Assembly (NCBI GenBank): GCA_965218395.1
Contig: OZ244620.1
Location: forward strand, 1,669,268-1,733,267
Source: an uncultured Candidatus Binatia bacterium
GTDB lineage: Bacteria > Desulfobacterota > Binatia > Bin18
Direction: 5' to 3'
DNA length: 64,000 bases
The notes beneath the pieces are model-generated. The model was not told where the DNA came from. It saw nothing but the letters and a program-made list of their open reading frames with translations, and ran no database searches. Below, piece after piece: positions 6,694 through 40,416 of the stretch. A program made the position numbers and the translations under genes. How positions within the stretch are numbered: position 1 is the first letter of the stretch; the number at the start of each line of letters is the position of its first letter.

Positions 6694-6747
6694 AAAGAGT
6701 AAACGTGTCCGGCATCTCATGTCTATTGGAGGACACGTTTACTCTTT
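6694..6747. repeat. family-1 palindromic element, copy a (arms AAAGAGTAAACGTGTCC / GGACACGTTTACTCTTT, 20-nt loop GGCATCTCATGTCTATTGGA), between the purE stop and the moeA start
   Basis: Perfect 17-bp inverted arms read from the sequence; four related copies elsewhere. Confidence 0.7.
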
Positions 6748-19393: not shown

Positions 19394-19414
19394 ACTCTCT
19401 CCTCTCTAGAGCAA

Positions 19415-19605
19415 ATCACGATGCTATGTAGCGCGTCTCTCTCCTCCTTGAGGAGGGCGGGCTTCCAGCCCGCATGGCGGCCAGGATGGCCGCCCTCCCA
19501 GGCGGGGAGCCCCCCCCATCCCCTCCCTGGCCGCTTGGTGCCAGCCATTGTCTTTCCCGACGAGCGCGGACGGGCACGGCTACAACAACTTATCGTGAAA
19601 CGCTC
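19415..19605. repeat. ~190-bp inverted repeat, left copy (IR-L), between the pstS start and the oprP stop
   Basis: ~95% identical to the reverse complement of 21293-21496; contains the internal near-palindrome GGCGGCCAGGATGGCCGCC. Confidence 0.75.
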
Positions 19606-19611
19606 TAGGGT

Positions 19612-21027
19612 TTAGAAATCGACCTGGAAACGCGCCTGGACGATGTCGGCATCGCCGCAGTGGTCGCCCATGTCGCCTTTGTAGTAGCAGTCGTCATCGT
19701 CCAACATGGCCCGCACATAGTTGAGCATGAAGCGCAGGTTGGGGTTGAGATACCAGTTGACGCCGAGGGTGAAGTTGCTCAGCTCGCCGCCGTTCATGTC
19801 CTCGTCGTTCAGGTCCAGCATGGAGTAGCGGCCCGCGAATTCCAGCGCGCCCCAGCCACCCTTGCCGTCGAAGTTGTTCTTGGGCTTGACGCGGTCGAAG
19901 GCGCCGCTGGAGGTCTTGTAGGGCCGGTGCTCACCGGTCAGGAAGAAGCTGCCGAAGATGTAGTAGCCGTTGTACCGGATGTCGTCGCCCGTGGGTCGGT
20001 CAATGAGCGCGCTCATCCACTCGAACTGTAACGAGGCCGGGCCGTAGACCAGCGCTACTTCGGGGTTGAAGTAGTCCACGTCCTCGACGTGAAACTTCGG
20101 GGTTGCCACGAACCGCGGGCCTAAATGGGCCTCAGGCCGCTGCCGCCACCGAATCGTGTTGCCCCGGTCGTGGAAGGCGTGCCGATAGGACAGCCCGAGG
20201 TGCAGGAGCTGCCGGCCCTTTTCCTGATACCAGGGCAGGACGGTCAGCCGGGTCGTGGCGTTGTAGATGCCACTGTTGCCGAAGGTCGTGCTGGTGTCCG
20301 CCGGGTTGCCTTCCCGGAAAAAGCCGAACGCCGCGGTGGCGCGCTTGTCCATAAAGGCCCGGTTCAGGCGCACGCCCAGGTTACGGCCGCTGGAGAACAC
20401 GTTGGGCAGCGAACGCTCCATAAAGGTGATGTATTTATCGCTGGTCAGCTCTTCGAGCGAGAACGGCTCCTTAAAGTGACCAACCGTGAAGTTCCCGGCC
20501 AGCGGGAGCTTCTTCAGTTGAATATAGGCATCCTTGAACGGGTCGGAGCTGGCGAAGTCGTACTGAAACTTGTACTTGATGTTGCCGTAGACGCTGCCTT
20601 CCATGAAAAACCGCGCCCGCCGGAACTCCGTACCGTCGCCGATCCGACCGAACTGCCGGCGCAGTTTTTTGTCCGTGCTGTAGACGGCCCAGTCGTTCAT
20701 GATCCGACCGCCGATTTTGAGCTTGAATTCGCCGTCGGCCGAGTCGAGCCGCAGCCCGTTCTTCCAGTAGGCGGCCAGAAAGTTCTTCTTGCCAACGCTT
20801 TTCTCCAAGCCTTCGACCTTTTGCGTCAGGCCCGAGGCGGCTTCGGCCTGCTCATCCTCGGCTTGGGCTTTAATCATCAGGTCGCGGTATTGCTGCTCGC
20901 TGATCTGCCCATTGGCTTTGAGGATATCCAGGATTTCCGCGGCCACATTCTTGGCCTGGGTAGGTCGTGCCAAAAGCAGCCCGGCCGCAACAAGGCCGGC
21001 GCAGAACGCTATTCCCAATCGTTTCAT
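19612..21027 (-). CDS. oprP: phosphate-selective porin O/P family outer-membrane protein
   Basis: Signal peptide; beta-barrel-like alternating pattern; C-terminal ARFQVDF with terminal Phe; family-typical length and motifs; GGAGGAGG RBS; placement at the head of the pst operon. Confidence 0.7.
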   Translation of the reverse strand: MKRLGIAFCAGLVAAGLLLARPTQAKNVAAEILDILKANGQISEQQYRDLMIKAQAEDEQAEAASGLTQKVEGLEKSVGKKNFLAAYWKNGLRLDSADGEFKLKIGGRIMNDWAVYSTDKKLRRQFGRIGDGTEFRRARFFMEGSVYGNIKYKFQYDFASSDPFKDAYIQLKKLPLAGNFTVGHFKEPFSLEELTSDKYITFMERSLPNVFSSGRNLGVRLNRAFMDKRATAAFGFFREGNPADTSTTFGNSGIYNATTRLTVLPWYQEKGRQLLHLGLSYRHAFHDRGNTIRWRQRPEAHLGPRFVATPKFHVEDVDYFNPEVALVYGPASLQFEWMSALIDRPTGDDIRYNGYYIFGSFFLTGEHRPYKTSSGAFDRVKPKNNFDGKGGWGALEFAGRYSMLDLNDEDMNGGELSNFTLGVNWYLNPNLRFMLNYVRAMLDDDDCYYKGDMGDHCGDADIVQARFQVDF

Positions 21028-21178: not shown

Positions 21179-21292
21179 GGCCGTTATGAATGTGTGAAAA
21201 TTCAGGAGCGGAACATATTGAATATAAATAAGAATATCGGTCGGAAGAGCGGTCCGAAGGGGAGGAATCTGGTCACCCGAACGCCGAGGCTG

Positions 21293-21496
21293 GAGCGTTT
21301 CACGATAAGTTGTAGCCGTGCCGGTCCGCGCTCGTCGGGAAAGACAAGGGCTGGCCCCAAGCGGCCAGGGAGGGGATGGGGGGGCTCCCCGCCTGGGAGG
21401 GCTCCCCGCCTGGGAGGGCGGCCATCCTGGCCGCCATGCGGGCTGGAAGCCCGCACTCCTCAAGGAGGAGAGAGACGCGCTACACAGCATCGTGAT
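21293..21496. repeat. ~200-bp inverted repeat, right copy (IR-R); carries an extra 19-bp tandem unit (CTCCCCGCCTGGGAGGG)
   Basis: Reverse complement aligns with 19415-19605. Confidence 0.75.
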
Positions 21497-22054
21497 TGGC
21501 GCGAGAGCAAATTACGGTTCTGTGTAGCCGCCCGTCATTCCTGCGGAAGCAGGAATCCAGCCCCCGCCCCCTCCGCCCGCTGGATGCCGGATCAAGTCCG
21601 GCATGACGAGAGCGCGCCAGGAAGCTGGTGCATGGGATGCACCCTACGGTTCTGGAGCGCCGGGCACCACATGAGCGCAGTGTTCAGCCTTGTAGGTCGG
21701 GTTAGCCACAGGCGTAACCCGACATCCCGGACTTGTCGGATTACGCTCCGCTAATCCGACCTACTGACTCCCAGAGGGAGAGGGATTCTTTTCTTTCCCT
21801 CTCCCCTGGAGGGAGAGGGTGGCCGAAGGCCGGGTGAGGGGGCAACGGACCCTCGTAGGGGGCTAATGACACAATATGCATCACACGTCCAAGGAGGGGA
21901 GTTTTTCCTATCCCCTCCTTGGAGGCCCGTCCCGAGCCTGTCGAAGGGGGTGGCCCTGAGCTTGTCGAAGCCTGACCTGAGCCTAGTCGAAGGAGGCCGG
22001 GGTGGGGTTCCTGTCGCATCACACGTCTTGGAGGGGGCGACGCACACGTCGCCC
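21497..22054. repeat. non-coding block packed with hairpins/palindromes (e.g. CAAGGAGGGGA...TCCCCTCCTTG; three TGTCGAAG units; GGAGGGGGCGACG...CGTCGCCCCTACTCC); shares inverted segments with 10132-10339
   Basis: Read from the sequence; no credible ORF. Confidence 0.5.
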
Positions 22055-23147: not shown

Positions 23148-25139
23148 TCAATCGCTCAGTTCCAGGGTGCGGAGTCTCGTATCTGCGGTCTTACCCTTAC
23201 CACACGTCACCCCGGCCCGCTCGTGTGCCCCGCAATTATGCTCCCCTATATCGGCATGAGGGCACTCCAGCAGGGTGGCTTCGTTCCCCTCGCAGTTCAC
23301 GTCGTCCAGCCAGTACCAACTGTCCTCTGAATCATCGGGCCCAAACGACAGCTTTATGAGCGCCGCGACGGTCTCCCGCTCCACCTCCGTATATCCCAAC
23401 TCGCGACACACAACTCTGGCACCCCTGTAGGTCCAGGAGTCATCACAGACACTCCGCCATTCATCATTATAAGCAATCTCGACGATGCCGGTCACCTCCG
23501 TCATGCCATCAGGCATGAGTGCCTCCCCCGTCTCTCGGTCCACAAGCCGCACCGTGCCATCATTGGCGTCCGCCGGGTCCACGTCGTCCGGCGGGTCCGG
23601 GGGGGGCGGCGTGATGATCTCCGCATTCGTGCTGACCGCGTCCGAGGCGTCCGACCAGTCGCTGTCCGTCTCGCCGTTCTTGGCCCGCACCTGCACCTGG
23701 TAGGACGTGTCCGCCGTCAGCCCGGTGATGGTCGTCGCGACCGCCTCGCCGGTGTGTGCGAAGGCGGTCCACGAGGAGTCCGTGCTCACCTTGTACTGCA
23801 CGTCGTAGCCGGTGATCTCCGGGCCGCCGTTCAGGTCCGGCTCCGTCCAGGTCGCGGTCAGGGTCGTCGACGAGCCCATGACCGCCGCCAGCGTCGGCTT
23901 GGCCGGCTTGGCCGATTTCTCGGTGTCGTCCGTGACGTCGATCGTCACCGCGATCGTGGCGCTGGCCGTGCCGTCCGACGCCTTCACCGTCACCGAGTAG
24001 GAATTCTTCGTCGCCTCATAGTTGTAGTCCACGCCCGTGATCGTCGTGATCTGCCGGGTCGAGGCGTCGAAGGCGAACGAGGCCGCGTCCGTCCCCTCCA
24101 TGGAGTAGGTCAGCGTGTCGCCGCTGTCGGCGTCCGTGGCTTCGGGAATGACCGCGCCGACGTTCGTGCCCGCCGGGCTGTTCTCCTCCACCTCGCGCGT
24201 CGCCGTCGCGGGGTCGAACACCGGGGCGTTGTTGCCCGTCCGCGAGCCGTCCACCTTGTGGCCGGACTGCACGCCGAGCGCGGCATGCGTGAGCCCCGCC
24301 GGCTCGCTGGTGGCCACGATCGTGATCGTGCCGGTCTGGTGACTGCCCACCAGGGTCTGGCCCTGGTGCCCGATCCAGATGCCGTCGTTATCCTCGTCGC
24401 TCGACACCACGGTGTAGCCGAACACCAGCGCGGCGGAGCCCGCGCCCGACTCGTACGCCGCATCGACCTGCCGCCCTACGCCCAGGTTGCCGAGCGAGAA
24501 CCTGAAAGCCGGGCTCGTGCCAATGTTCACCCCCGAGCTGAACGTCACCGTGAAGCGGATCGTCTCGCCCGCCCCGTAGGTGTCGGTCTCCAGCCCCGGC
24601 GTCGAGCTCACCGCCACCGAGACGATCGAACGCGAGCCGTCCACCTTGTGGTCGGCGTCCGTGCCGAGCCCGGCATGGGTGAGGTCCACCGCCGTGCTCG
24701 GCGTGGCCACGCTCGTGATCGCGCCCTCCTGGGTAAGACCCATGCGGTCACCCACCAGGGTCCGGTCCTGGTCCCCGATCCAGATGCCGTTGTCGTCCTC
24801 GTCGCTCGCCCCCACGGTGTAGGAGAACACCAGCCTCGTCGTCCCCGAGCCGAACAGCAGCGGCGCGCGCGTGTCGTCGCCGCCCACGGACAGCACGAAG
24901 GTCGTGGCGTCCGTGGCGTTCACCGCCGCGCTGAAGGTCACCGTGACCTCGATCCTCTCGCCCGCCCCGTAGGTGTCGGTCTCCAGCACCGGGTTCGACG
25001 TGATCGCCACAGTGGTGACCGTCTGCGCCTGGGCCGTGGCGGGCAGGGCGAGGGCGGCGAGCACCGCGAGCCAAGCCGCGACGCGCTGCCCTCTCCGGCC
25101 AAGCGCGTCCAACACCCCGGCCCCCAGCACGCCCCTCAT
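23148..25139 (-). CDS. N-terminal part of the adhesin-like protein: signal peptide, two ~105-aa Ig-like repeats, a cadherin repeat (NAPVF...DADSGDTLTYS...DYNYE), an FN3 domain, and a C-terminal SRCR (scavenger receptor cysteine-rich) domain
   Basis: ORF 23148..25343; start at MRGVLGAGV...AWLAVLAALALPATAQA. SRCR signature VRLVD...GIVEIAYNDEWRSVCDDSWTYRGARVVCRELGY...SWYWLDDVNCEGNEATLLECPHADIGEHNCGAHERAGVTC at ~23200-23580. Confidence 0.65.
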   Translation of the reverse strand: MRGVLGAGVLDALGRRGQRVAAWLAVLAALALPATAQAQTVTTVAITSNPVLETDTYGAGERIEVTVTFSAAVNATDATTFVLSVGGDDTRAPLLFGSGTTRLVFSYTVGASDEDDNGIWIGDQDRTLVGDRMGLTQEGAITSVATPSTAVDLTHAGLGTDADHKVDGSRSIVSVAVSSTPGLETDTYGAGETIRFTVTFSSGVNIGTSPAFRFSLGNLGVGRQVDAAYESGAGSAALVFGYTVVSSDEDNDGIWIGHQGQTLVGSHQTGTITIVATSEPAGLTHAALGVQSGHKVDGSRTGNNAPVFDPATATREVEENSPAGTNVGAVIPEATDADSGDTLTYSMEGTDAASFAFDASTRQITTITGVDYNYEATKNSYSVTVKASDGTASATIAVTIDVTDDTEKSAKPAKPTLAAVMGSSTTLTATWTEPDLNGGPEITGYDVQYKVSTDSSWTAFAHTGEAVATTITGLTADTSYQVQVRAKNGETDSDWSDASDAVSTNAEIITPPPPDPPDDVDPADANDGTVRLVDRETGEALMPDGMTEVTGIVEIAYNDEWRSVCDDSWTYRGARVVCRELGYTEVERETVAALIKLSFGPDDSEDSWYWLDDVNCEGNEATLLECPHADIGEHNCGAHERAGVTCGKGKTADTRLRTLELSD

Positions 25140-25359
25140 CGAACCGCCCCCCGCACGGGCACGAGCCGACGGGCGGAACCGGGGGGCGAAACCGGGTCGC
25201 AGCGGCCTCGGACGGGGCTGACTGTACGGGGGAACTGTGCTATGCGGAGAGGTTCGTTCGGGGAGCAGCAGGGATGTCATAACGGCATACCCGTCCTTTC
25301 CGTGTGATGCACGACCGCCTTGTAAAAGGTTCCCGTACAACATCTCGCCGCGTTTGACC

Positions 25360-25722
25360 CTAGGGCGTGTTCACACTTCTGAGGGCTTCGATGATGAGCG
25401 CGAAGTGGATGAAGAAGGCGAACACCACATCCAATTTGTCGAACCGGGAAAAGATACGGCGGAAGCCCTTGAGGCGGCGAAAGAGCCGTTCTACTTCATT
25501 GCGTTTCTTATATTTCTCGCGGTCGTACGGCCACGGCGCGGTACGATTGCTCTTGGGAGGCACGACCGGCGTGGCCCCTAAATCACGCACACACTGACGT
25601 GTCTCCTCCCCCTCATAGGCACGATCCATCACGACGTAGTCGGCCCACAGGGCCGTTTCACTCAGCAATTTCCGTCCCTCAGGCGCAGCGCCAGCTTGGC
25701 CCGGCGACAGCGAAAACCTCAC
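25360..25722 (-). CDS. IS5-family transposase OrfB (DDE C-terminal part)
   Basis: VMDRAYEGEETRQCVRDLGATPVVPPKSNR...YKKRNEVERLFRRLKGFRRIFSRFDKLD. Confidence 0.8.
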   Translation of the reverse strand: MRFSLSPGQAGAAPEGRKLLSETALWADYVVMDRAYEGEETRQCVRDLGATPVVPPKSNRTAPWPYDREKYKKRNEVERLFRRLKGFRRIFSRFDKLDVVFAFFIHFALIIEALRSVNTP

Positions 25723-26126
25723 GGCGGTGCAAGCATCCGCGGCAACCAGATGAATCTTGGTCGTCCAGCCGCCGCGAGACTTCCCGAGGGCTTGCGGCCC
25801 GTTTTTTTTCGCGCCCCCGTCCCGTCCGGATGAACTTTGATCACCGTACTATCCAGCGAGACCACTTCGACCCGCACGCGGATGATCTGCTGCTGCTGTA
25901 ACGCGGCAAAGACCCGGTCCAGGACCCCGTTCTTCGCCCAACGATTCAGGCGCGTATAGAGCGTATGCCAATTCCCAAAGTGCTCCGGTAAGCCCCGCCA
26001 CTTACACCCCTGCTCCACAATGTACAGAAGCGCGGCCAGCACTGGCCGATTGTCTCCCTTCACATTCCCGCGCTGCCGCGGAAGCAGATCCTTGAGGTGC
26101 TCGTACTGCTGTTGGGTAAGCTCCAT
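25719..26126 (-). CDS. IS5-family transposase OrfA (N-terminal helix-turn-helix part); -1 ribosomal frameshift site A8 at ~25802-25809 joins it to OrfB
   Basis: MELTQQQYEHLKDLLP...LYIVEQGCKWRGLPEHFGNWHTLYTRLNRWAKNGVLDRVFAAL. Shifting -1 at the A-run continues into KSRGGWTTKIHLVAADA, matching family consensus. Confidence 0.8.
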   Translation of the reverse strand: MELTQQQYEHLKDLLPRQRGNVKGDNRPVLAALLYIVEQGCKWRGLPEHFGNWHTLYTRLNRWAKNGVLDRVFAALQQQQIIRVRVEVVSLDSTVIKVHPDGTGARKKTGRKPSGSLAAAGRPRFIWLPRMLAPP

Positions 26127-26231
26127 TGAGAAAGTATAACAAATATAGTGTGAACACGCCCTAGTCACAGTCAAGGGAGGTCCCATGAACAAAGCGCCTC
26201 CAACTCAAGCAGAAAAACGGCCAATCGATAG

Positions 26232-27188: not shown

Positions 27189-27422
27189 ATGATTGAATCC
27201 TCCGTCACGAAGAAGGGGCAAACGACACTGCCCAAGCCCGTTCGGGAGTCACTTGGCCTGCAAGCCGGGGACCGGGTGCGCTACGTCATTTCCGACGGCG
27301 AGGTGCGCATTTTGCCCGTGCGTCCCATCAGTCGGCTGTTCGGCGCGCTCCAGCATAACGGTCCCGCCGTCACGTTGGAGAAAATGGAGCAGGCCGTAGC
27401 CGACGGGGCATGCGAGGGATGA
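27189..27422 (+). CDS. vapB: AbrB/SpoVT-MazE-type antitoxin (VapB-like)
   Basis: MIESSVTKKGQTTLPKPVRESLGLQAGDRVRYVISDGEVRILP swapped-hairpin motif; AGGAG RBS; overlaps the downstream PIN gene by 13 nt. Confidence 0.75.
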   Translation: MIESSVTKKGQTTLPKPVRESLGLQAGDRVRYVISDGEVRILPVRPISRLFGALQHNGPAVTLEKMEQAVADGACEG

Positions 27423-27811
27423 TCGCACTCGACACCAACGTCCTCGTGCGCTATCTGGTCCGCGACGATGTGCAGCAGGCAGACGCCGCCCGCGCACTCC
27501 TGGAGTCGCTTACGGCCGAACGTCCCGGCTACGTATGCCGTGAGGTGACGGTCGAACTCGCCTGGGTGCTGGAACGGGCCTATGGCTTTTCCCGTGACCG
27601 GATTGCGACGATATTGGAAGAACTCGTGGCAACCGAGGGGCTCGTGGTTGAGGAGGCCAACGATGTAGCCCGTGCGGCGTTCCGGTATCGAGCGGGTGGC
27701 GCTGGATTTTCCGACCTGATGATCCTGGCGGCGGCCGAACGGTCCGGAGCCCAGCCGCTGTACACCTTCGATCAGAAGGCCGCACGGCTTGAGGGTGTGT
27801 CGCTGCTGTAG
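27410..27811 (+). CDS. vapC: PIN-domain toxin VapC
   Basis: MIALDTNVLVRYLVRDD ... conserved acidic residues of the PIN fold; partnered with vapB. Confidence 0.8.
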   Translation: MRGMIALDTNVLVRYLVRDDVQQADAARALLESLTAERPGYVCREVTVELAWVLERAYGFSRDRIATILEELVATEGLVVEEANDVARAAFRYRAGGAGFSDLMILAAAERSGAQPLYTFDQKAARLEGVSLL

Positions 27812-27944
27812 CGTCCAGGCTAGACCGGTTCTCGATAGTCTCTCGCCGTGCAGGGGGCTCCTGTCATGCCGGACGTGATCCGGCATCCAGAGGGCGGAGG
27901 GGTCGGGAGCCTGCTGCTCGCGAGAGCGAGTCCGAGCCCAATCA

Positions 27945-28628
27945 TCAGATATCCTGTTCGAGGATTTGGCCGTTATCCCTCAGCCAGCTTCGCGCCTTTT
28001 CCATCCTTGGCGCGTGCGTCCGAACGACATTCCAGAATCGGGGGGTATGATTTGCTTCGAGCAGATGGGCGAGTTCATGCACAATGACGTAATCGATCAC
28101 GAACATCGGCGCTTTGATCAGCCGCCAGTTCAGGTTCACGTTGTTCTTGACAGTGCATGAACCCCAGCGGAAACGATTGTCCACGATCTTCGCGCCGGCA
28201 AACTCCACCCCGAGCATAGCCGCAAGGGATTTTACCTTTGGAAGAATCCTCTCTCTCGCTCGGTTGACGTACCAGTTGCGAAGCACACTTCTTCGTTCGC
28301 CCGCCAGGGAAGCCGGGATCAAGAAACGCTGCCCGAAGCGTATCTCCGTCGAGTCGGTCGGGATGACTTCGACTTGGTACTCGCGGCCAAGGTAGAGCGC
28401 GGATTCGCCGTTTACCAGCTCCTTGCCGGGCGGATGGGGCCGCTCTGCGTACTTCTGGGTATGCTTCGTCTTCTCATAAATCCACTGACGTTTTGACTCG
28501 ACAGCTTCCCGAATCGTCTCTTCAGGGGTGGACTCGGGGGCATGAACGACCACGCTACGGTCCCGCTCGACGGTGATCGTCAGCTTCTTACGTTTCGGTG
28601 AGCGTTTGATTGTGTAGGCCGTGTCCAT
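27945..28628 (-). CDS. M48-family (YgjP-like/DUF45) zinc metallopeptidase associated with Type I RM
   Basis: HELAHL zincin motif; 2 nt downstream of hsdR. Confidence 0.8.
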   Translation of the reverse strand: MDTAYTIKRSPKRKKLTITVERDRSVVVHAPESTPEETIREAVESKRQWIYEKTKHTQKYAERPHPPGKELVNGESALYLGREYQVEVIPTDSTEIRFGQRFLIPASLAGERRSVLRNWYVNRARERILPKVKSLAAMLGVEFAGAKIVDNRFRWGSCTVKNNVNLNWRLIKAPMFVIDYVIVHELAHLLEANHTPRFWNVVRTHAPRMEKARSWLRDNGQILEQDI

Positions 28629-28630
28629 GC

Positions 28631-31600
28631 TTACTCCGCGTAGAGAATGATGTCATGGTTCTTTTCCGCGATCTCCATCACACGGCTGATTATTTGGGCA
28701 TGCTTGTTCACAAGGTTCGGGAGCGCTACGAACGACGGCTGGAGAAGCGTCTTCTGAATCTCGGCTCTTAGTTTGTTGCGCGCTGGAATACTTTCCCAAA
28801 ATCCGACCAGCTTCAACTCTCGCTCGACCACCAGTGAGACCCCCTGCGTCAGCGCGACCAAGTGGCTGATTTTGTCGTCCTCGCTCAAGCCGTAACGCGG
28901 ACTCGTTTCCGCTACCCTCAATTCGTCAGCGTCCTTGACCATGTCCGCACCAAACAGCTCGCGTCGAAACATGCGAAAGAACGGCATCTGCCTTTTCCTG
29001 TGGAGGCCATAGGTTGGTTCCTTGCTGGAATTGATGATCCTTGTTCGTAGCTTCTCCAGCTCTTCGTAAATCCTTTTCCAGTTATCCTGGAACTCTTGCA
29101 ATATCTGCGCGAGTGCTTCCGCGAAGGACGCTTGCAAGTCCGGGTCGTCACCCAACTCAACGTCGAGGTGGTGGCGGATAGCGTGTTCTACTTCTGCCGC
29201 TTTTGTCTTTGTGCGGCTGCGCTGATCGACGTTCTTTTGGAAGTCCTCGTCCAGAATGGAAATCGGTTTGACCTTCTGGGCTATGCTCTTTGACTCCAGA
29301 TATTTGTCTGTGATGGCGCGTAGCTTCGGCGGGATGCCCTTCATGCTGAGGCGTTCATCCCGGAAGTGCTTGCCGGCGAGGATGTTGATTTCAGAAAGAG
29401 CATTGTAATCGTCCATAAACTCCAATGCCTGCCGCGCGGGGAAAACGAGGTTCAGGCACTTGGTCAACTTCTTGAACGCCTGCATGTAGTCAAAGCGCAG
29501 GTCCTCGTCGTAGAGCACATCAAAAAAAGCGTCATGGTCCGTCAGGTCTGTCAGGCCATGCTGCTCAAGCAAGGCTATAATCGCAGCATGGCTGTCCTTG
29601 AGGTTGCGCAGTTCTTCTTCGGGAAAGCTGAGGGTGTCAATGACTTCCTTTTGTTCTCGCTCGTCATAAACGTCGATGGCTTTCTTGAGATGATGCCCAA
29701 CGCCGACGTAATCAACCACGAAGCCTTTGTCCTTCGTGTCGCCTCCAACCCGATTCACCCGAGCAATGGCCTGCAATAGGTTGTGGTCGGTGATGACTCT
29801 ATCCAAATACATGACCTGCTCCACCGGAGCGTCGAAACCCGTGATGAGCATATTGTTGACGACGAGGATGCCCATGTCTCCGCTCACGCCTTCGTCTTCA
29901 CCCCCGAACACCATTTTGAAGCTCTTGATACTGCGTCCGTGCTTGGTCTGGTCAGCGTACTCCTTTAAGTGCGGCAGATCGTTGTGTCCGCCGGAGATCA
30001 CGACATCGGTTTGCAGCTTCTTTAGCTGTTCTAGGTCGAGGCCGGGCGGGTTTGGTTTTTCCAACTCGGCAACGGCTGCACCCAGGGCAGTGTCGAGGTG
30101 CTTCTTGTAACGGATCGCCGCCTCGCGCGATGTAGCCACCACCTGGGCCTTGTAGCCGTTCGGAAATACATGGGTCAGGTAGTGCCTGACCATATCCTTG
30201 GCCTTGGCTTGAATCGTGGGTTCTGCCTCCAGGTAGGCGTCTCGGGAGCCGTAGCCAAGGATTTGAAGTCTTTGCTGGAGGTCGTAGTCGCTGAATACAT
30301 CCGCAAACGCCGCATCCATGCCTCCCTGGTCGGGTATTTCTGCGTTGTGGGTGCGGCCTTCGTAGACGATCTCCAGGGTAACGCCATCGTCTATGGACTG
30401 CCGCATGGTGTACTTGTCGATGTAGTCGCCAAAGACGCGCTCGGTCTTGTCAATCGGCGTGCCGGTGTAGCCGATCTTTGCGGCGTTCGGGATGCCCCTA
30501 TCGAGATTCGCTCCGAGCATCTTGTATTGGGAGCGATGGGCCTCGTCCGTCATAACCAGGATATGTGGGCTGGCATTAAGCTGTGGGAAGGTTTCGGTCA
30601 GGTCCGGGTCGCGGAATTTGTGGATCATGGCCATGACCAGGTCCGAGGTGTCGGCCCGAAGCAGTTCCTTCAGCTCGCGGATGCTGTTGGCCGTCTTCAC
30701 GGGAAACCCGATGCTTTGGCTGGTCTCGCTCAACTGGTCTTCGAGCTGTGTCCGGTCGGTGACGAAGACCACTTTCCAGCGTGCCAATTGTGCGTGTCGG
30801 TACATTTCACGCACCATGAACATCATGGTCAGCGATTTGCCCGAGCCCTGGGTGTGCCAGATGATGCCGCTCCGTTCGCGCGGGTTCCCGCCCTCCAGCA
30901 ATCGCTTGACCGCGAGTTTGACCGCCCGGAACTGCTGATAGCGCCCCACAATCTTGATGGTCTGGCCTCTGTCGTTGGTCGAAAACAGGGTGAACGTCCG
31001 CATGAGATCAAGCAGGTTATCCTTATCCATCATCCCGGCGACCAAGCGCTGCTGGTCGTTCGGGCTGCCAGCGCCATGATCGAGGTCATTGACCGTTCGC
31101 GGATAGGGGTCGGCCCAGCGGTAAAAATACTTTTCACTCCGCGTGGTGATCGTCCCGAACTTGGCCTCCTGGCGACAGGTGGCGACCACAAACTGATTGA
31201 AATAAAAGAGCGGTGGGCTTCCTTCGCCTGTGACACCACGTTGCTCGCCGTAGCGCAGCATCTGGTCAATGGCCTCGGGGATGGCGTCCTTCACCTTGGG
31301 CGACTTGCATTCAATCAGGACCACGGGCAGGCCATTCACGAACAACACAACGTCCGGGATGATGTGGTGCTCGGTGCCCAGGATGCGGACCTTGAATTGG
31401 CACACGGCAATAAAGTGGTTTTTGTCGCGGTTCTTGAAGTCGATAAAGTGCACAGTCGGGCTCTTCTCGCCCGTCTGTCGGTTCTCACTGACGCTGGTGT
31501 TCTCCAGAAGCAGATGAAGGATGTGCTTGTTGTTCTCGATCAATCCGGTGCCGGGGAAATTCGTGATGAGTTGCCTGACGACTTCTTCGACCTGGTCGTC

Positions 31601-31813
31601 TGCCAGCCACGGATTGATGACTGTGAGCTGTTCTCGCAGTACCGGCAGCATGACGACTTCGGTAAAGTTCTCTCGAAACGTATCAGCGGGCTTCTGCTGC
31701 TTGTCGGTCAGGTCGATGATCTCCCAGCCCAGACCGTGCAACTGCTCAAGGAGGGGTATCTCGACGTGGTTACGTTCGTCCATGCGAAGGGACTGCGCCC
31801 TCATAGTCATCAC
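28631..31813 (-). CDS. hsdR: Type I restriction enzyme R subunit HsdR
   Basis: 1,060 aa; helicase motifs (GSGKSLTM, DEAH box VMTDEAHRSQ), characteristic N-terminal nuclease and C-terminal domains. Confidence 0.9.
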   Translation of the reverse strand: MMTMRAQSLRMDERNHVEIPLLEQLHGLGWEIIDLTDKQQKPADTFRENFTEVVMLPVLREQLTVINPWLADDQVEEVVRQLITNFPGTGLIENNKHILHLLLENTSVSENRQTGEKSPTVHFIDFKNRDKNHFIAVCQFKVRILGTEHHIIPDVVLFVNGLPVVLIECKSPKVKDAIPEAIDQMLRYGEQRGVTGEGSPPLFYFNQFVVATCRQEAKFGTITTRSEKYFYRWADPYPRTVNDLDHGAGSPNDQQRLVAGMMDKDNLLDLMRTFTLFSTNDRGQTIKIVGRYQQFRAVKLAVKRLLEGGNPRERSGIIWHTQGSGKSLTMMFMVREMYRHAQLARWKVVFVTDRTQLEDQLSETSQSIGFPVKTANSIRELKELLRADTSDLVMAMIHKFRDPDLTETFPQLNASPHILVMTDEAHRSQYKMLGANLDRGIPNAAKIGYTGTPIDKTERVFGDYIDKYTMRQSIDDGVTLEIVYEGRTHNAEIPDQGGMDAAFADVFSDYDLQQRLQILGYGSRDAYLEAEPTIQAKAKDMVRHYLTHVFPNGYKAQVVATSREAAIRYKKHLDTALGAAVAELEKPNPPGLDLEQLKKLQTDVVISGGHNDLPHLKEYADQTKHGRSIKSFKMVFGGEDEGVSGDMGILVVNNMLITGFDAPVEQVMYLDRVITDHNLLQAIARVNRVGGDTKDKGFVVDYVGVGHHLKKAIDVYDEREQKEVIDTLSFPEEELRNLKDSHAAIIALLEQHGLTDLTDHDAFFDVLYDEDLRFDYMQAFKKLTKCLNLVFPARQALEFMDDYNALSEINILAGKHFRDERLSMKGIPPKLRAITDKYLESKSIAQKVKPISILDEDFQKNVDQRSRTKTKAAEVEHAIRHHLDVELGDDPDLQASFAEALAQILQEFQDNWKRIYEELEKLRTRIINSSKEPTYGLHRKRQMPFFRMFRRELFGADMVKDADELRVAETSPRYGLSEDDKISHLVALTQGVSLVVERELKLVGFWESIPARNKLRAEIQKTLLQPSFVALPNLVNKHAQIISRVMEIAEKNHDIILYAE

Positions 31814-31885
31814 TCCCGTAGCACCAGCGCAAATTCCGATTCTGTGTAGCTGTCCGTCATTGCTACCCCTCGCTTCAGTGAAGAA

Positions 31886-32212
31886 TCAAGGAGCTTCCTT
31901 GTCCAGAGCGGCAATGCCGGTTAGCACAATGGGGGGACGGTCGGGGAATTCCGCCACCAGACTTAATTTTCCGCCCATTGCTTGAACGTAGCTTCGGAGC
32001 GTGGATATCAGTAGATCGCTCCGCTTTTCGATACGCGATACGTTTTCCTGGTTGATCCCGAGTTCCTTGGCTACGCGTACCTGCGTCTGTCTCCGCGCCT
32101 TGCGCAGGTCTTGGAGCGACATCTCTTCGGCAATCAACGTGTTGGCCCGTTCCTCCACTTTCTTCCGGCGTGCAGTGGGGAGATTGTCCATTCTCTCTGC
32201 GAGAGTCGTCAT
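31886..32212 (-). CDS. XRE-family HTH antitoxin (HigA-like) embedded in the RM operon
   Basis: KELGINQENVSRIE HTH; 4-nt overlap with the upstream toxin gene. Confidence 0.7.
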   Translation of the reverse strand: MTTLAERMDNLPTARRKKVEERANTLIAEEMSLQDLRKARRQTQVRVAKELGINQENVSRIEKRSDLLISTLRSYVQAMGGKLSLVAEFPDRPPIVLTGIAALDKEAP

Positions 32213-32577
32213 CGTGACCTCCTTTCGTCTTTCAGCCGGTTGAGATGCGTATCGAACCGTTCGTCCGCCTTCTTGATCATCTGTCTGTAAAAATGTCTTT
32301 CGCTGACACCGGATTTGTCGCCAGCAACGAGCAGGATGGCCTGCCGCTTTGGGTCAAAGGCAAAAGCAACTCGCCACACGCCGTTATCGGCCTGAAAGCG
32401 AAGCTCCTTCATGTTGGCGTGGCGAGATCCATTCAGAGTGTCCACCCGCGGGCGGCCCAGAGAAGGGCCGAATGTCTCAAGAAGCTTCGCCTGCGCAAGT
32501 AGCTCATCCTGCACTGCGGTGGGCAGGGCATCGAACTCCAGGTCAAAGGCCGGATCGAAGCCGACTTCCCAGTTCAT
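32209..32577 (-). CDS. RelE/ParE-superfamily toxin (HigB/Gp49-like) embedded between hsdS and hsdR
   Basis: ELRFQADNGVWRVAFAFDPKRQAILLVAGDKSG...FYRQMIKKADERFDTHL matches HigB/Gp49-type toxins; toxin-first gene order typical of higBA. Confidence 0.7.
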   Translation of the reverse strand: MNWEVGFDPAFDLEFDALPTAVQDELLAQAKLLETFGPSLGRPRVDTLNGSRHANMKELRFQADNGVWRVAFAFDPKRQAILLVAGDKSGVSERHFYRQMIKKADERFDTHLNRLKDERRSR

Positions 32578-32615
32578 TATCTAAGTATGATCCTAGATAA
32601 AATATGCTGTCAAGG
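32578..32615 (-). promoter_or_regulatory. putative sigma70 promoter (TTGACA-17-TCATAC) overlapped by a perfect 7-bp inverted repeat TTATCTA...TAGATAA (candidate operator) upstream of the toxin gene
   Basis: Read on the minus strand in the 105-nt hsdS-higB gap. Confidence 0.4.
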
Positions 32616-32682
32616 TCATATAGGAGACCCGGTTCCGCCCGTAGTACCCGACCGGGATGTGTCTTTACTCGCGTCTTGGTAC

Positions 32683-33933
32683 TCATATGCCGCCCTCTAC
32701 GTCAGTCAGTAACGGAGTAACAGACACCTTGCCGGTGAGGAGGTCTTGCATGAGGGCCGTTTTGAGAGAGCGAAGTTTTGTTAATGAGCCTACCTGATAT
32801 TCGTATTCATTTCTTAATAAATTTATTTGCATAATCACCTTTGACTGCTCGGCAGGCGGTGGATAAGGGACCAAATAACTACGAATATCTCCGAGGGAAA
32901 GATTTGCTCTAGCTGTCTCAACTTGCTCTCCAAGTAGTCGTTCAATGTTTTTGGATAATTGGAGATATTCGCATAGCCACAATGGTTTCACTTCATTACT
33001 TAAACGAACTGAACAAACAGCTTGATTTATGTTCGCATCACGGTCCAAGTCATAAACTGCTGATCGTGCAATTGATGCCCCAACGAGATTAACTAGAATA
33101 TCACCATACCTCAGTGCGGAGCGTTTAAGTTTTTTGTGAAAGGTATCGGAAATAAACTTTTCCGACTTTGTAATATCTAAAAAACCGACTCTCACATTTT
33201 CACTAGTAATAAATAGTATGCCTTCCTCGTGATACTTAAATCCTTGCCATGTGGGAGACTCTCCTTTAGTAACTTGAGCGGCTAGATTGCCAATCGTCTT
33301 TACCTCCCACTCCACCGGAATGCGCCCAAGTGGCGAGTCCTTGAATTCGTGTGTATCTTCGGAGCGAAGGTTTCCGTCTTTGTCGATGCCGCGCGTGAGC
33401 AGGTCTTGCATCAGGCCGGTCTTGATGCGCTGCTGCTTGGCGATTAACGCTTCGGTCTGGTCAATGGATTGATCGACTGTCGAGAGTATTTCGGCGATTT
33501 TGGTTTGTTGGGGTTTCTGATAATTGAAAAGCGAAAGATCGCCAAAGATTTCTTTGTCAACGTGCGGAATACCAGAGCCAGCCGTTTGGCCCTTGAGATA
33601 GTCTTCCCAACCTTTTAGAGCGTAATGGAAATAGCCAGTATCATAATCGGAGTTATGGCGGACCCTCATCATTGTTGACGCAAGCATCCCATCACGCGCC
33701 CTAAGAATTTCACCAGCATTTGAACCGTCCCAGAGAATAATCGTTTCCCCATCCATAACCCGTATAGCATCCGAACTTGGGCGGGCGTACTCAGGTTCCG
33801 CCTTCCCTCGTAGGAAGTCAGGCGTCAGATATCGTTCTGCTCCAAGCCCATTGTAAGAAGTCTGTAGCGGCGGTTTCCCTTTTTCTAGCGTACATACGTC
33901 CCGAAGAGGGCGAGACTGAGTAGTTGGGCTCAT
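32683..33933 (-). CDS. hsdS: Type I RM specificity subunit HsdS (two target-recognition domains)
   Basis: Two TRD halves with conserved inter-domain repeats; 4-nt overlap with hsdM. Confidence 0.85.
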
Positions 33934-36614
33934 TTGGAATACCCAAGACCTTTCAAGAATCCGTCCAGGCGATCTACTGTGGCCAACCGCGACCGTTCCA
34001 TGTCCTGGCTACTCACCGCGTACTTGCCCCACAGATTCTCAACACCCGAAACCAAGTCGCGCATTTCCGCATTAAGATAGCGTTCGAGTTCGGCGCTGGC
34101 GATGTCGTAGAGCTTCTTGAGGATAAGGTGCTTGGCTTCGTCATTGGTTAGCTGGCCGTTGATTGCTTCCAGTATCACGTCGGTCTTGGCAATGCGCTCC
34201 TCAAGTGTGGCCTTGTCCTTGTTCAGGACATTGATCTTCTTCTTGTCGGTCTTGTCGAGGGGGTCCAGCTTGGCAAGCTGGCTTTCGACCTGCTGGATGA
34301 GTTCCCGGCTTTCGGCTTTGAACCCTTCGCCGCCAAGCCGTTTGAGTTGGATTTTGAGTTCCAATTCGGTGGTCTTATTCTTCGACAAGGCTCTGCTGAC
34401 CCTGATTTGATTCTCAATCTTCTTGATGGCGGCATCCTGTGCCTTGAGGTCATCACGCTCTCGATGGGCGGATGCGCCCGCACTATCCTTGAGGTCATCT
34501 ATGAGGGCTTTCAGAGCCTTCTTGATGACTGTGGCCGTTATCTTTTCATCTTCGTTGGGTTCGTAGGCAGCCACCTCTTGCGCGGTTTCCACGGCCTCGG
34601 CCAGCTCGGTTTGGAGTTCATTGATACGGGTCTCCAATTCCTCAATGGCGTCCGCGTCGCTCTGGAAAAACGCGGCGATCAGATATTCGTCCGGGATGAG
34701 GGTGTGATGCCAGCCGGTTGAGACAATGGTTTTCAGGTCGTAGCGATTTTGCTGCCACCAGTTGACAAACACACCGGCGCTCTTGAATTCGTCCAGCACT
34801 CCCAAGGGAACGAGCTTGTCCTTGAGCGTGGTCAAAAGCTCACGCCGGACTTCCGGCATTTTCCGACCGCCGTGATTGGCGCGTTCAAGCTCGGCGAAGT
34901 CGTCACGGGCTACGCCCCACCATTCCTTGAGGGCATTTCGGTGGGTATCCAACGTATGCCCGACCGATTGGTCCACTTCGATGATGCCTTTTATGTCGGC
35001 CTTGCTTGCAATCGACTCTTTGAATGTCAGGTATCCCGGTCGGTCCGGCTGGAATAGCGTTTCGCATTGAAGGCCAAACTTGTTGAAATTGTCGCTTTGT
35101 GCCGAAACCTCACTTTCAGGGATGCCGCCGATAAGATGGGCTTGTACGTCTTCCGGTTCCGGCTCGGGCGTGTTGTCCACATAGCGTCGGATGTTCAGGT
35201 TGTAGTCGTGTTTGTCGGCAATCTCTGACTTGTCCACAAGTCGGCTATATTTCGGAATCTCGCGTTTGGTGGAAAACACGAAGTCGATTTTCTCCACGTC
35301 TTCCGGGCGCAGTTTGTTTTGATTTTTTCCCTCCGCATATTCACGGTCCGCATTGATGAACAAAATCTTGCCGCGTAAGGCATCGGGTTTGTTCTTGTTG
35401 CAGACCAGCACACAGGCCGGAATACCGGTCCCATAAAAAAGACCCTGCGGCAAACTGATGATCGCCTCGATAACATCGTCGTTTATCAACCGCTCCCGAA
35501 TCAGCTTCTCCTTACCGCCACGAAAAAGTACGCCGTGAGGCATGATCGTGGCCATGTGGCCGTCGCTCTTGAGGCTCGCCAGCATGTGCTGGACGAACAT
35601 CAGGTCGGCTTTCTTGCCGGTTTCCGGGCACCACTCTTGGAAGCGGTTGGTGAATTTCATACTGGCGCGACTGTAGTTCTGTGAAAATGGAGGATTGGCC
35701 AACACCCGGTCGAACCTGCGTATCTGCCCGTTTTGCAGGATCAGCGGGTCTTCCAAGGTGTCCCCGTTCTCGATGGTGAAGCGCGCAATGTTATGGAGGA
35801 TCATGTTCATGTTGCAGATCGACCACGTGGTGCCGTTGGGGTCCTGGCCGTAGAGGGCCAGATTGTTGGCGTTCTCGCCCTGCTCCTCAACGTACTGGTG
35901 GGCCTGGATGAGAAAGCCACCGGAACCGACGGCTGGATCGTAAATCTCGTTCCCTGCCGTTGGCTTGGTCAACTGGACCAGCAGGCGCACGACTTCCGCA
36001 GGGGTATAGAACTCGCCTCCTTTCTTGCCCGCGCTGTCCGCGAAATACTTGATCAGGTACTCGTAGGCTGCGCCGAGCAGGTCGGGGAACTCGAAATTTT
36101 CGTTGACCAGGACGAAGCCCGGCTGGTTGAAATGATCGAGCAACTCCTTCCACTTCTGATTCTCTATTTTCGTCTTGCCCTTGGCGGCGTTGAAGTCGAT
36201 GTTGTTCTTCAGCACCCCGGCCAGCGAGTCGTTCGCGTCCTCGACCGCAGCAAGGGCTTTGTTCAGCATGTTGCCGATATCGTCTTTGAGGTCCTTGAGC
36301 GCAGGAACCAAGTCACCATTCTCATCCGCCCATGTCTCGTGCCAGCGGGCACGAACGGGGACGAAGAACGTCTCGCCGAAGGCGGTCTTGTCCTCAACGA
36401 GTTGCGCCAGGAGATCAGGCTGGTCCTTGAGATGGGCGTATTCCGCTCGTACCTGTTCGCGCTTGCGGTCGAACTCGTCAGACAGCCGTTTCAGGAACAG
36501 CATGCCGAAGATGAACTCCTTGAACTCGGAGGCGTCCATCTTGCCGCGCAGAATGTCGGCGGCTCTGAACAGAAAGGATTCGAGTTGGGCTAAGGTAATT
36601 TTTTCAGTCGTCAT
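33930..36614 (-). CDS. hsdM: Type I RM methyltransferase HsdM, long form (894 aa) with a ~400-aa coiled-coil C-terminal extension
   Basis: HsdM N-terminal domain plus N6-MTase (VLANPPF motif IV, GSGGFL motif I); C-terminal half rich in heptad-like repeats. Confidence 0.9.
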
Positions 36615-36622
36615 GTGGGGGC

Positions 36623-36937
36623 TCAGGCGGCTTCATACACCACTCTGCCTTCCCGCAGGGCGGGCTTGATGATGAGCGCGTGGCTATCCTTGAATCGCTC
36701 TACATCCTCGGGGGAGACGACGATGGCATCAACCGCAGCACCGACCCCGTGCAGCTTTCGATAGATCCGAGCCATGAGATCGAGTGCATCCGCCCCTTCC
36801 TTGATGATGAGCAGGTCCACGTCGCTATTGGGACCCATGTCGCCCCGAGCGGCAGACCCGAAGAGAATGATCTTCTCCGGCTGGGCTGTTTCCACAACGC
36901 GCCGGATGATGTCGTCCAATGTCTGTCTGTCGAGCAT
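36623..36937 (-). CDS. minimal nucleotidyltransferase (MNT/Pol-beta superfamily), first gene of the RM operon; no HEPN partner found
   Basis: [10 protein letters not shown]...DVDLL NTase signature. Confidence 0.7.
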
Positions 36938-37087: not shown

Positions 37088-37115
37088 ACCCCGAGGGGGT
37101 TGGCCCTCGGGGTCT
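37088..37115 (-). terminator. stem-loop GACCCCGAGGG-ggttgg-CCCTCGGGGTC downstream of tRNA-Asn
   Basis: Perfect 11-bp stem; weak T-tract. Confidence 0.45.
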
Positions 37116-37153
37116 CACGTTCGCTGGCGAGTTGCCGGATTTGGCGGTCGAGT

Positions 37154-37229
37154 TGGCTCCTCGGGTTGGACTCGAACCAACAACCCATCGGTTAACAGCC
37201 GATTGCTCTGCCGATTGAGCTACCGAGGA
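37154..37229 (-). tRNA. tRNA-Asn (anticodon GTT), CCA encoded
   Basis: Hand-folded cloverleaf: acceptor TCCTCGG/CCGAGGA, anticodon loop CTGTTAA, T-arm GTTGG-TTCGAGT-CCAAC. Confidence 0.85.
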
Positions 37230-40297: not shown

Positions 40298-40416
40298 GTC
40301 AGTGGTGATAGCTAGGCTACCCTGCGGCACAGGGAGAATTCCGGTACCGCTGCTTCCTTCCGGACCTGACGGATTTCCCGGCTTCCCTTGCGCAGGACCT
40401 AGCTATCACCACTGAC
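40298..40416 (-). ncRNA. ffs: signal recognition particle RNA (4.5S/ffs type)
   Basis: Minus strand contains GUCAGGUCCGGAAGGAAGCAGC and UGUGCCG...GGGUAGCC (domain IV motifs), closed by a 19-bp terminal helix GUCAGUGGUGAUAGCUAGG/CCUAGCUAUCACCACUGAC. Confidence 0.75.

Follow-up and report, generated by a model that had tools for sequence, protein, structure and literature searches.

Introduction

Type I restriction-modification (R-M) loci can carry further genes between hsdS and hsdR; in the prr locus of Escherichia coli CT196, for example, the gene order is hsdM-hsdS-prrC-hsdR, with PrrC being an ABC-ATPase/anticodon nuclease that is masked by the restriction enzyme. Here, we analyze a Type I R-M operon that has a predicted toxin-antitoxin pair at this same junction, and that is located at positions 27945-36937 of a 64,000-nt stretch of DNA from an uncultured Candidatus Binatia bacterium. 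We refer to this whole stretch as the window, all coordinates are those of the window unless another locus is named, and comparison loci from other genomes or contigs carry L numbers (L001, etc.). The RRDM island of E. coli EPEC E2348/69 has the order RptR-HsdM-HsdS-DarT-DarG-HsdR-M48 and protects against phage (PMC12255303), and its authors found other cargo in the same hsdS-hsdR slot, which they regard as a potential recombination hotspot (Nucleic Acids Res 2025, PMC12255303). The “guilt-by-embedding” study of Payne et al. catalogues genes embedded in Type I R-M, BREX, DISARM and Hma systems, including those for GmrSD-like proteins and PrrC, and reports that genes embedded in Type I systems are enriched for defense functions and that PrrC occurs almost exclusively embedded in Type I systems (bioRxiv 10.1101/2024.01.29.577857). 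In the pneumococcal tvr Type I locus, the Phd-Doc-like tvrAT pair lies between hsdM and hsdR, where it acts as a regulator and not as a toxin or addiction module (PMC6265443).

We find it highly probable that the Binatia locus is an intact operon of the form MNT-hsdM-hsdS-cargo-hsdR-ygjP (MNT, minimal nucleotidyltransferase), in which the slot between hsdS and hsdR holds an autonomous HigBA-type cassette of 740 bp as opportunistic cargo in a recombination hotspot. As part of this reading, the pairing of the cassette with the hsd genes is not a dedicated, co-evolved two-layer system.

A complete Type I R-M operon with an embedded gene pair

The operon consists of seven genes, all encoded on the minus strand. 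The first gene of the block encodes an MNT-type minimal nucleotidyltransferase (36623-36937; 104 aa), and is followed by hsdM (33930-36614; 894 aa), which codes for a long methyltransferase subunit of Type I that has a helical extension at its C-terminus, and by hsdS (32683-33933; 416 aa; Methylase_S in two stretches), encoding the specificity subunit. The genes for a HigB-like toxin (32209-32577; 122 aa; Gp49/DUF891, RelE fold) and a HigA-like XRE helix-turn-helix antitoxin (31886-32212; 108 aa) come next, and are followed by hsdR (28631-31813; 1060 aa; TIGR00348), encoding the restriction/translocase subunit, and by the gene for a YgjP-like zinc metallopeptidase (27945-28628; 227 aa; DUF45, annotated as M48-family; PF01863, 2e-57) with a HELAH zinc motif. 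An earlier note on this DNA had proposed this order and these identities, and both were confirmed by the exact coordinates of the open reading frames (ORFs) and by profile searches. The tight coupling it described follows from the same coordinates, i.e., hsdM and hsdS overlap by 4 nt, as do the toxin and antitoxin genes, and 2 nt separate hsdR from the peptidase gene; the gap between the MNT gene and hsdM is 8 nt.

Our profile searches showed all three Hsd subunits to be complete. HsdR scores 465 bits against TIGR00348 (cutoff 284.55) and contains HSDR_N, SWI2_SNF2, T1R_D3-like and T1RH-like_C domains, with both the nuclease N-terminal domain (HSDR_N) and the SF2 motor (SWI2_SNF2) present. HsdM scores 266.6 bits against TIGR00497 (cutoff 242.75), with HsdM_N and N6_Mtase domains, and the PADLOC MTase_I profile PDLC03031 covers its residues 4-892 (4.6e-284); this full-length match identifies the 894-aa HsdM as a known subtype whose length is a family trait. 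We also considered a HEPN or other fused domain hidden in this long HsdM, and rejected it because the PADLOC Type I methyltransferase profile spans the full length of the protein. HsdS is covered by the PADLOC Specificity_I profile at residues 10-411 (1.8e-82) and contains two target-recognition domains, corresponding to the two Methylase_S stretches, with conserved regions common to relatives between them; at the DNA level, hsdS aligns to related loci at 33307-33509 and 32643-32763 only. Taken together, these profile matches identify the locus as a complete Type I R-M operon, with both restriction and methylation activity predicted.

Examination of the hsdR N-terminus indicated that the true start codon is likely the ATG at 31810 or 31804. 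A frameshift in hsdR, with the short upstream ORF MTDSYTESEFALVLRE as a displaced N-terminus, was rejected, as the in-frame MDERNHVEIPLLEQL shows that hsdR is intact, and the short ORF belongs to a dispersed repeat described below. The MNT protein matches NTP_transf_2 (1.6e-11) and Polbeta (3.4e-12), contains a GSAARGD...DVD motif, and also matches the PADLOC candidate PDC-S09 (7.9e-11). Its score against MntA (NF047752) is 33.5 bits, below the cutoff of 60, and no HEPN partner is found on either side, the neighbors being hsdM, 8 nt away, and 216 nt of non-coding DNA that leads to a tRNA-Asn gene. An MNT-HEPN (type VII) toxin-antitoxin system was ruled out on the basis of this sub-cutoff score and the lack of an adjacent HEPN gene.

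The embedded pair is predicted to be a HigBA-type module

A search of the toxin against PDB by sequence gave no meaningful match. An AlphaFold model of the toxin, built from an alignment of 30 homologs (pLDDT 91), was compared with PDB using Foldseek, and the best matches were an archaeal RelE (1wmi), HigB of Streptococcus pneumoniae (6af4/6af3) and HigB2 of Vibrio cholerae (5jaa), with a probability of 0.98-1.00, at a sequence identity to solved toxins of just 17-20%. Together with the PF05973 match (7.7e-23), this bears out the RelE/ParE-fold toxin of the earlier note, a fold hit having been found where its absence would have counted against the proposal. Across the 30 homologs, 47 alignment columns are invariant. 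The antitoxin is homologous to the PDB chains of Mycobacterium tuberculosis HigA2 (7ewc, 1e-06) and HigA3 (6lty, 1.5e-06) in a phmmer search, and this homology, the toxin-first order and the 4-nt overlap agree with the XRE antitoxin proposed to lie beside the toxin. This order, with the toxin gene first and the antitoxin gene second, is the reverse of the usual toxin-antitoxin gene order. Based on these homologies and on the model, we class the pair as a HigBA-type type II module, with toxin activity, neutralization and autorepression as predicted properties.

The hsdS-hsdR junction is a variable slot in related operons

We scanned one genome per species and obtained 80 related loci, with HsdM proteins 62-92% identical to that of the window and with metagenome-assembled Candidatus Binatia genomes as the best-matching relatives, and compared all seven window proteins with these loci using tblastn. 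Toxin and antitoxin were found in 0 of the 80 species-representative loci, and the placement of the pair between hsdS and hsdR, which the earlier note had suggested checking for conservation, is therefore not a conserved feature of related operons. YgjP directly follows intact hsdR wherever the contig reaches, starting 6-27 nt past the HsdR match, and this adjacency is a constant feature of the hsd family. The MNT gene is present in only two of the 80 loci (L011 and L088).

In the 57 related loci that reach hsdR, ~0.7 to 9.4 kb separate the hsdM end from the hsdR start; hsdS abuts hsdR directly in 13 of these 57, and the remaining ones hold cargo. Clustering of the cargo ORFs between hsdM and hsdR, with a domain scan of representatives, identified GmrSD-type enzymes (11 loci), Schlafen-AlbA_2/HATPase_c_4/winged-helix proteins (nine proteins in seven loci), RVT_1 (reverse transcriptase) proteins of ~1270 aa (seven loci), YhcG/DUF1016 nucleases (four loci), a Gabija-like combination of an OLD-type ATPase and a UvrD helicase (three loci), SIR2 with HerA, and several pairs of a small protein with a PIN protein, including Phd/YefM with PIN in the closest Binatia relatives, L011 and L090. 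The hsdS-hsdR junction is thus a variable cargo slot with fast turnover. In these uncultured soil and marine lineages (Binatia and others) the slot turns over quickly while hsdR-ygjP remains fixed, lending support to the proposal, already published, that Type I systems contain a recombination hotspot (PMC12255303).

The slot in the window also contains traces of an earlier occupant. The first ~17 codons of a HigA-family HTH_3 gene are present at 32629-32686 (minus strand), where they overlap the stop codon of hsdS and are truncated by the toxin-antitoxin cassette, and this gene start upstream of the cassette indicates that the slot has been overwritten before. Full-length HigA-family genes lie directly upstream of hsdR in L011 (L011:14769-15056; HTH_3, 6.7e-09) and L177 (L177:1738-2025), and related HTH_3 genes (cluster 7) occupy the same position in L018 and L088. 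L011 and L090 (L090:13905-13960) also hold the same remnant as the window, but there a Phd/PIN cassette truncates it at another codon. Site-specific insertion of these cassettes was rejected, since the Phd/PIN and HigBA cassettes cut the old HigA-family gene at different codons, which makes a fixed attachment site unlikely. These sequence comparisons point to repeated overwriting of the slot, at sites that vary; the solitary helix-turn-helix gene before hsdR may reflect how the slot looked earlier, and a role of this gene in regulating hsdR is possible.

A 44-nt motif (AATGACGGACAGCTACACAGAATCG...) at 31821-31864 (minus strand), between the antitoxin gene and hsdR, belongs to a dispersed REP/MITE-like repeat, of which it makes up the 3′ part, and forms a direct repeat with 21499-21542 (82% identical). 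This repeat consists of two hairpins (CATGCCGGAC..GATCCGGCATC and GGATTCCnGC..GCnGGAA) followed by TGACGGnnGGCTACACAGAAnCG, and may also be written as a AATGACGG...CTACACAG repeat; further pieces are present at 21499-21613 and 27857-27910 of the window and at L011:5229-5309. Its 3′ part lies between the antitoxin gene and hsdR in both the window and L001, and in L178 and L179 copies of the motif are present on both sides of the cassette (L178:5896-5931 and 6711-6739). The flanking repeats hint at repeat-mediated recombination as a possible means of cassette exchange.

Our survey also showed a second variable slot, located upstream of hsdM in relatives. This slot holds, for example, a ThsB-like TIR protein in L012 (L012:9415-9912), an HTH_17 protein, a C5 cytosine methylase and HD-CE and ORC/CDC6-like proteins in L090 (L090:4741-8966), a 529-aa RVT_1 reverse transcriptase in L001 (L001:4323-5912), and a 1380-aa protein without a Pfam match in L011 (L011:5857-9999). 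Just upstream of the reverse transcriptase gene in L001, a stretch of 154 nt (L001:4166-4319) is 79% identical to the 5′ part of the window antitoxin gene, and may be a second, decayed copy of an antitoxin gene.

The cassette is widespread and has been exchanged comparatively recently

The toxin is represented by >120 protein clusters at 79-97% identity, with the few source-named clusters coming from Nitrospira, Gemmatimonadota, Latescibacteria and Deltaproteobacteria. Copies that are 88-90% identical are stand-alone pairs beside unrelated genes (L003-L010), and in a further 86 metagenomic and viral loci (50-77% identity) an XRE gene follows the toxin gene in 80 of 80 cases where the contig permits, with no hsd homolog near the pair in any of these 86 loci; overall, the same pair stands alone in ~90 other loci. 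The pair is also found embedded elsewhere, as hsdM-hsdS-toxin-antitoxin-hsdR-ygjP, with the P0001 toxin (97% identical; L001/L002, a Tara Oceans contig) and the P0004 toxin (93%; L178 and L179, which differ upstream of hsdM). With the P0003 toxin (92%; L177:6001-6704), the pair is located immediately after ygjP of the same hsd family, outside the hsdS-hsdR slot, which in L177 holds a 90-aa ORF and the full-length HigA-family gene. The earlier note had regarded absence from related hsd operons, combined with independent occurrence elsewhere, as evidence against its proposal. The absence from all 80 relatives and the many stand-alone copies agree with this, but in three further metagenomic contigs the pair is again embedded.

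Comparison of the window with L001 at the DNA level demonstrated that hsdM and hsdR are 84-87% identical, with 72-75% of same-amino-acid codons unchanged, whereas the corresponding values for the toxin and antitoxin genes are 97% and 92-96%; the HsdS proteins share only 31% identity. The high identity begins ~8 nt upstream of the −35 box of the toxin promoter and stops at the antitoxin stop codon, and the drop in identity among the window, L001 and L178 sets the cassette borders within a few bases. The exchanged unit therefore measures ~740 bp (~32625-31886 in the window), and since its codon conservation exceeds that of hsdM and hsdR, it was exchanged more recently than the hsd genes diverged.

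These findings bear on the suggestion that the pair is a dedicated abortive-infection backup, i.e., a PrrC-like guard that releases the toxin once it detects that a phage has inhibited the Type I enzyme. The position of the pair between hsdS and hsdR is that of prrC, the closest toxin copies are hsd-associated in four contexts, a Type I island containing DarTG2 does defend against phage (PMC12255303), and PrrC itself is reported almost only from within Type I systems (bioRxiv 10.1101/2024.01.29.577857). However, the pair is missing from 80 of 80 related hsd operons, stands alone with its promoter intact in ~90 loci, and in L177 is outside the slot; in addition, the toxin has a RelE fold, no homology to PrrC and no ABC ATPase domain, and it is encoded with its own antitoxin, so that Hsd proteins are not needed for masking. 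By gene content, the slot encodes only the 122-aa RelE-fold protein and the 108-aa helix-turn-helix protein, and an anticodon nuclease of the PrrC type was rejected on this basis. The link of the toxin to the Hsd proteins would be only an analogy of position, and we consider a PrrC-like guard very unlikely. A role in abortive infection is plausible.

The same distribution can be read as that of a selfish passenger, an addiction cassette in a permissive, recombination-prone spacer that has no defense role and at most stabilizes the island. The cassette is highly mobile, as shown by its many clusters and the varied sources of the few that are named, most copies stand alone, REP/MITE-like repeat copies flank it in L178, and it was exchanged recently relative to the hsd genes. 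Set against this, most other cargo in the slot is recognizably defense-related, and enrichment for defense among embedded Type I genes is reported (bioRxiv 10.1101/2024.01.29.577857). A pure passenger overlaps with the opportunistic cargo that we favor, the sole difference being whether the toxin ever limits phage, and we hold it to be a tentative and rather doubtful alternative.

Several points weigh against an autonomous cassette carried as opportunistic cargo. The closest toxin copies (92-97%) are all in or beside this hsd family (L001/L002, L178, L179 and L177), and this sub-lineage of the pair may be more than a chance passenger. The Pfam helix-turn-helix matches of the antitoxin (HTH_37, HTH_31 and HTH_3) are weak and under their gathering scores, and the toxin is assigned from its profile match and modeled fold. 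Finally, we infer each of toxicity, neutralization, promoter activity, the leaderless start and operator binding.

The cassette has its own predicted promoter and a conserved dyad

A promoter scan placed a sigma70-like promoter directly upstream of the toxin gene (32584-32621, minus strand), with a −35 box TTGACA at 32613-32608, a −10 box CATACT at 32589-32584 and an 18-nt spacer. The promoter that the earlier note had assigned to the toxin is thus found at 32613..32584, and the same layout occurs upstream of homologs in unrelated contexts. Aligning the upstream regions of 85 distinct homologs showed a shared pattern of TTGAC(A)-N17/18-CATA(A/C)T, followed by ~6 bases and then ATG or GTG (many toxin homologs begin with GTG); 48 of the 85 match the strict promoter pattern, and many others are near misses.

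Two inverted repeats overlap this promoter. The perfect 7-bp repeat TTATCTA-N10-TAGATAA (32600-32594/32583-32577, minus strand), which had been put forward as a candidate autoregulatory operator, is indeed present and overlaps the −10 box and the start codon, but it is perfect only in the window and L001, has one mismatch in its left arm in L178, is not conserved in stand-alone homologs, and arises in ~5% of shuffles of the 105-nt hsdS-toxin spacer. A dyad of ATATG and CATAT that straddles the −35 box (32621-32617/32606-32602, minus strand) is conserved in the family: of 86 distinct upstream regions, 69 contain its 4-bp form, TATG-N8-12-CATA, and 34 its 5-bp form, ATATG...CATAT, where shuffled sequences would give 0.58 and 0.045, respectively. 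This conservation makes the ATATG...CATAT dyad the better candidate for the operator.

Counting from the −10 hexamer of the window, the A of the toxin start codon is base seven, where transcription is expected to begin, and no Shine-Dalgarno sequence precedes this codon. The combination of the two suggests that the toxin mRNA is leaderless, and the start codon lying ~7 nt past the −10 box in L003-L010, L091-L180 and the window would imply leaderless toxin mRNAs across many phyla. Between the antitoxin gene and hsdR, we found no terminator or significant RNA structure in the spacer (z-score +0.76); since the cassette promoter is co-oriented with hsdR and no terminator intervenes, read-through into hsdR-ygjP is likely, and the promoter probably adds to transcription of these two genes.

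This arrangement raises the question of whether the cassette serves mainly in regulation, with the antitoxin or the toxin-antitoxin complex gating the promoter that drives hsdR-ygjP, and so delaying or limiting the restriction subunit, in the manner of controller proteins in Type II systems or of TvrAT in the pneumococcal tvr locus. The strong, conserved promoter reads toward hsdR from 0.77 kb upstream without an intervening terminator, a solitary HigA-family HTH_3 gene directly precedes hsdR in L011, L018, L088 and L177 and has left a remnant in the window, and TvrAT is a regulator rather than an addiction module (PMC6265443). However, in 13 related loci hsdS and hsdR abut and no regulator intervenes, an operator-like dyad was not seen directly upstream of hsdR, and the strong constraint on the toxin, evident from its invariant columns, argues for a working toxin. 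We regard a mainly regulatory cassette as unlikely.

For the autonomous cassette that we favor, a mechanism can be proposed by extension from RelE/HigB-family modules. In this mechanism, an antitoxin dimer would repress the cassette promoter through the ATATG...CATAT dyad astride the −35 box, the toxin would be transcribed as a leaderless mRNA, and the toxin, a putative ribosome-dependent mRNA endonuclease, would be kept inactive by the antitoxin. Shut-off of host expression, or loss of the locus, would allow the labile antitoxin to decay and the toxin to arrest translation; the island would be stabilized in this way, and a phage infection that escapes restriction could be aborted.

A stronger form of coupling is also conceivable, in which the HigBA sub-lineage that is at least 92% identical is now a specific partner of the long-HsdM family, with its autoregulated, leaderless promoter gating hsdR-ygjP, so that loss of antitoxin at phage shut-off would both free the toxin and boost the restriction subunit. 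Copies of this sub-lineage occupy the hsdS-hsdR slot in four contexts and lie just after ygjP in a fifth. If true, such a partnership would make the locus a two-layer system with real coupling, as opposed to one with chance cargo; we consider it distinctly unlikely.

GC content, flanking regions and history of the island

The block has a GC content of 54.2%, compared to 60.0% for the rest of the window (flanks 59-63%), and is the lowest 9-kb stretch in the window. The GC dip described in the earlier note is therefore real, but it is shallower than the ~50% against ~63% given there, and is concentrated in hsdS, which has a GC content of 46%, with hsdM, hsdR and the toxin-antitoxin cassette each at 55-57%. 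Within hsdS, the conserved segments that align to relatives have a GC content of 54% and the two target-recognition domains 50% and 39%, the second being located at 32764-33306. The low GC content of this second domain fits a recent swap from a lower-GC donor.

The features on both sides of the block are as had been described. A tRNA-Asn(GTT) gene, identified by ARAGORN and Rfam, lies at 37154-37229 (minus strand), 216 nt from the MNT gene start where ~200 nt had been estimated, with a strong hairpin after it (~37090-37125; z-score −3.6), and the genes beyond it, recR, ybaB and dnaX, form a housekeeping border. On the other side, convergent with the operon, is a VapBC-like pair (27189-27811, plus strand) of a MazE/AbrB-type antitoxin (PF04014, 7e-10) and a PIN toxin (PF01850, 6e-15), and beyond it an IS5-family element with 18-bp perfect terminal repeats (25360-26164); an S24 peptidase gene is also located on this side. 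A search of the 64-kb window with the 25-nt 3′ end of tRNA-Asn, allowing up to three mismatches, matched only the tRNA itself, so the partial tRNA repeat suggested for a distal island border is absent from the window, and no integrase domain was found among the ORFs scanned between 16 and 43 kb. Integration of the island at tRNA-Asn is thus not supported by the regions searched.

The proposal that the block was exchanged horizontally is supported by comparison with L011 (Candidatus Binatia OY761159.2), which is syntenic with the window on the tRNA-Asn side. At the DNA level, the island (MNT gene, hsdM, hsdR, ygjP, vapBC and part of the S24 gene) is 90-92% identical between the two, with L011 15057-20274, for example, aligning to window 31829-26609 at 92.5%, and the flank (dnaX, ybaB, recR and tRNA-Asn) is 78-83% identical; the island being closer to L011 than the housekeeping flank is, this argues for a recent horizontal exchange. 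L011 has an extra 4.3 kb between the MNT gene and hsdM, which encodes the 1380-aa protein without a Pfam match.

Other features were observed in the surrounding DNA. A gene for the bacterial small signal recognition particle (SRP) RNA (40307-40404, minus strand; Rfam, 73 bits) is located beside tRNA-Ser and dnaX, making the right flank core genome, and two tRNAs and this SRP RNA are the only Rfam families in 19-41 kb. Inverted repeats of ~205 nt that are 95-96% complementary (19404-19608 and 21290-21507) flank a gene for a phosphate-selective porin O/P (19612-21027, minus strand), which adjoins pst-like transport genes, and form an element without a transposase. In addition, a gene at 23148-25343 (minus strand) encodes a 731-aa protein with cadherin, fibronectin type III and scavenger-receptor cysteine-rich (SRCR) domains, and contains internal direct repeats of ~390-405 nt that are 79-82% identical; SRCR domains are unusual in bacteria.

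Comparison with known systems

The toxin and antitoxin resemble the HigBA2 and HigBA3 modules of M. tuberculosis, HigBA of S. pneumoniae and HigBA2 of V. cholerae in that the toxin gene comes first and the XRE antitoxin gene second, the genes overlap, the toxin is of the RelE fold and the antitoxin has the solved HigA2 and HigA3 as homologs; they differ from these modules in the low toxin identity noted above (17-20%) and in being embedded in an hsd operon. The prr locus is alike in having a gene for a suicidal RNase, here a predicted one, between hsdS and hsdR; unlike PrrC, the toxin in our locus is of the RelE fold, comes with an antitoxin and a promoter of its own, and is mostly found away from hsd genes. 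The tvr locus also contains a toxin-antitoxin-like pair within a Type I locus, but it has a recombinase and shuffling hsdS fragments, neither of which is present here. The embedded systems described by Payne et al. are similar in that the nested cargo is co-oriented, GmrSD-like proteins are frequent, as they are in the relatives analyzed here, and the MNT protein of our locus matches PDC-S09; in the passages of the preprint covered, this HigBA pair is not named (bioRxiv 10.1101/2024.01.29.577857).

The closest described system is the RRDM island of EPEC, and the likeness is one of gene layout. Both loci have seven co-oriented genes, with a small first gene followed by hsdM and hsdS, a toxin-antitoxin pair in the hsdS-hsdR slot, a metallopeptidase gene annotated as M48 directly after hsdR, and insertion sequences nearby. 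A blastn search with hsdR and ygjP gave no match in 5,426 complete E. coli genomes, a result that applies to the DNA level only, and our literature search for a link of YgjP/DUF45 with hsdR returned nothing beyond the RRDM paper (PMC12255303). The two loci differ in their cargo, which is the DNA ADP-ribosylating DarTG2 in RRDM and a predicted HigB/HigA-type mRNA-interferase pair here; in their first gene, which in RRDM encodes RptR, a 79-aa small helical repressor with 6-bp palindromes at the island promoter, and here a nucleotidyltransferase; and in host lineage.

The layout is thus one that has already been described for other toxin-antitoxin pairs, and the locus is an ordinary defense island and not a new kind of system, set apart from the described ones by its type of toxin-antitoxin pair, its first gene and its host lineage. 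Our analysis adds a HigBA-type pair to the toxin-antitoxin and defense genes known in the hsdS-hsdR slot of Type I operons, and provides, as useful by-products, a quantified turnover of this slot, a cut-off earlier occupant, the borders of the cassette, the flanking REP-like repeats, and a family-wide layout of predicted promoter, dyad and leaderless start.

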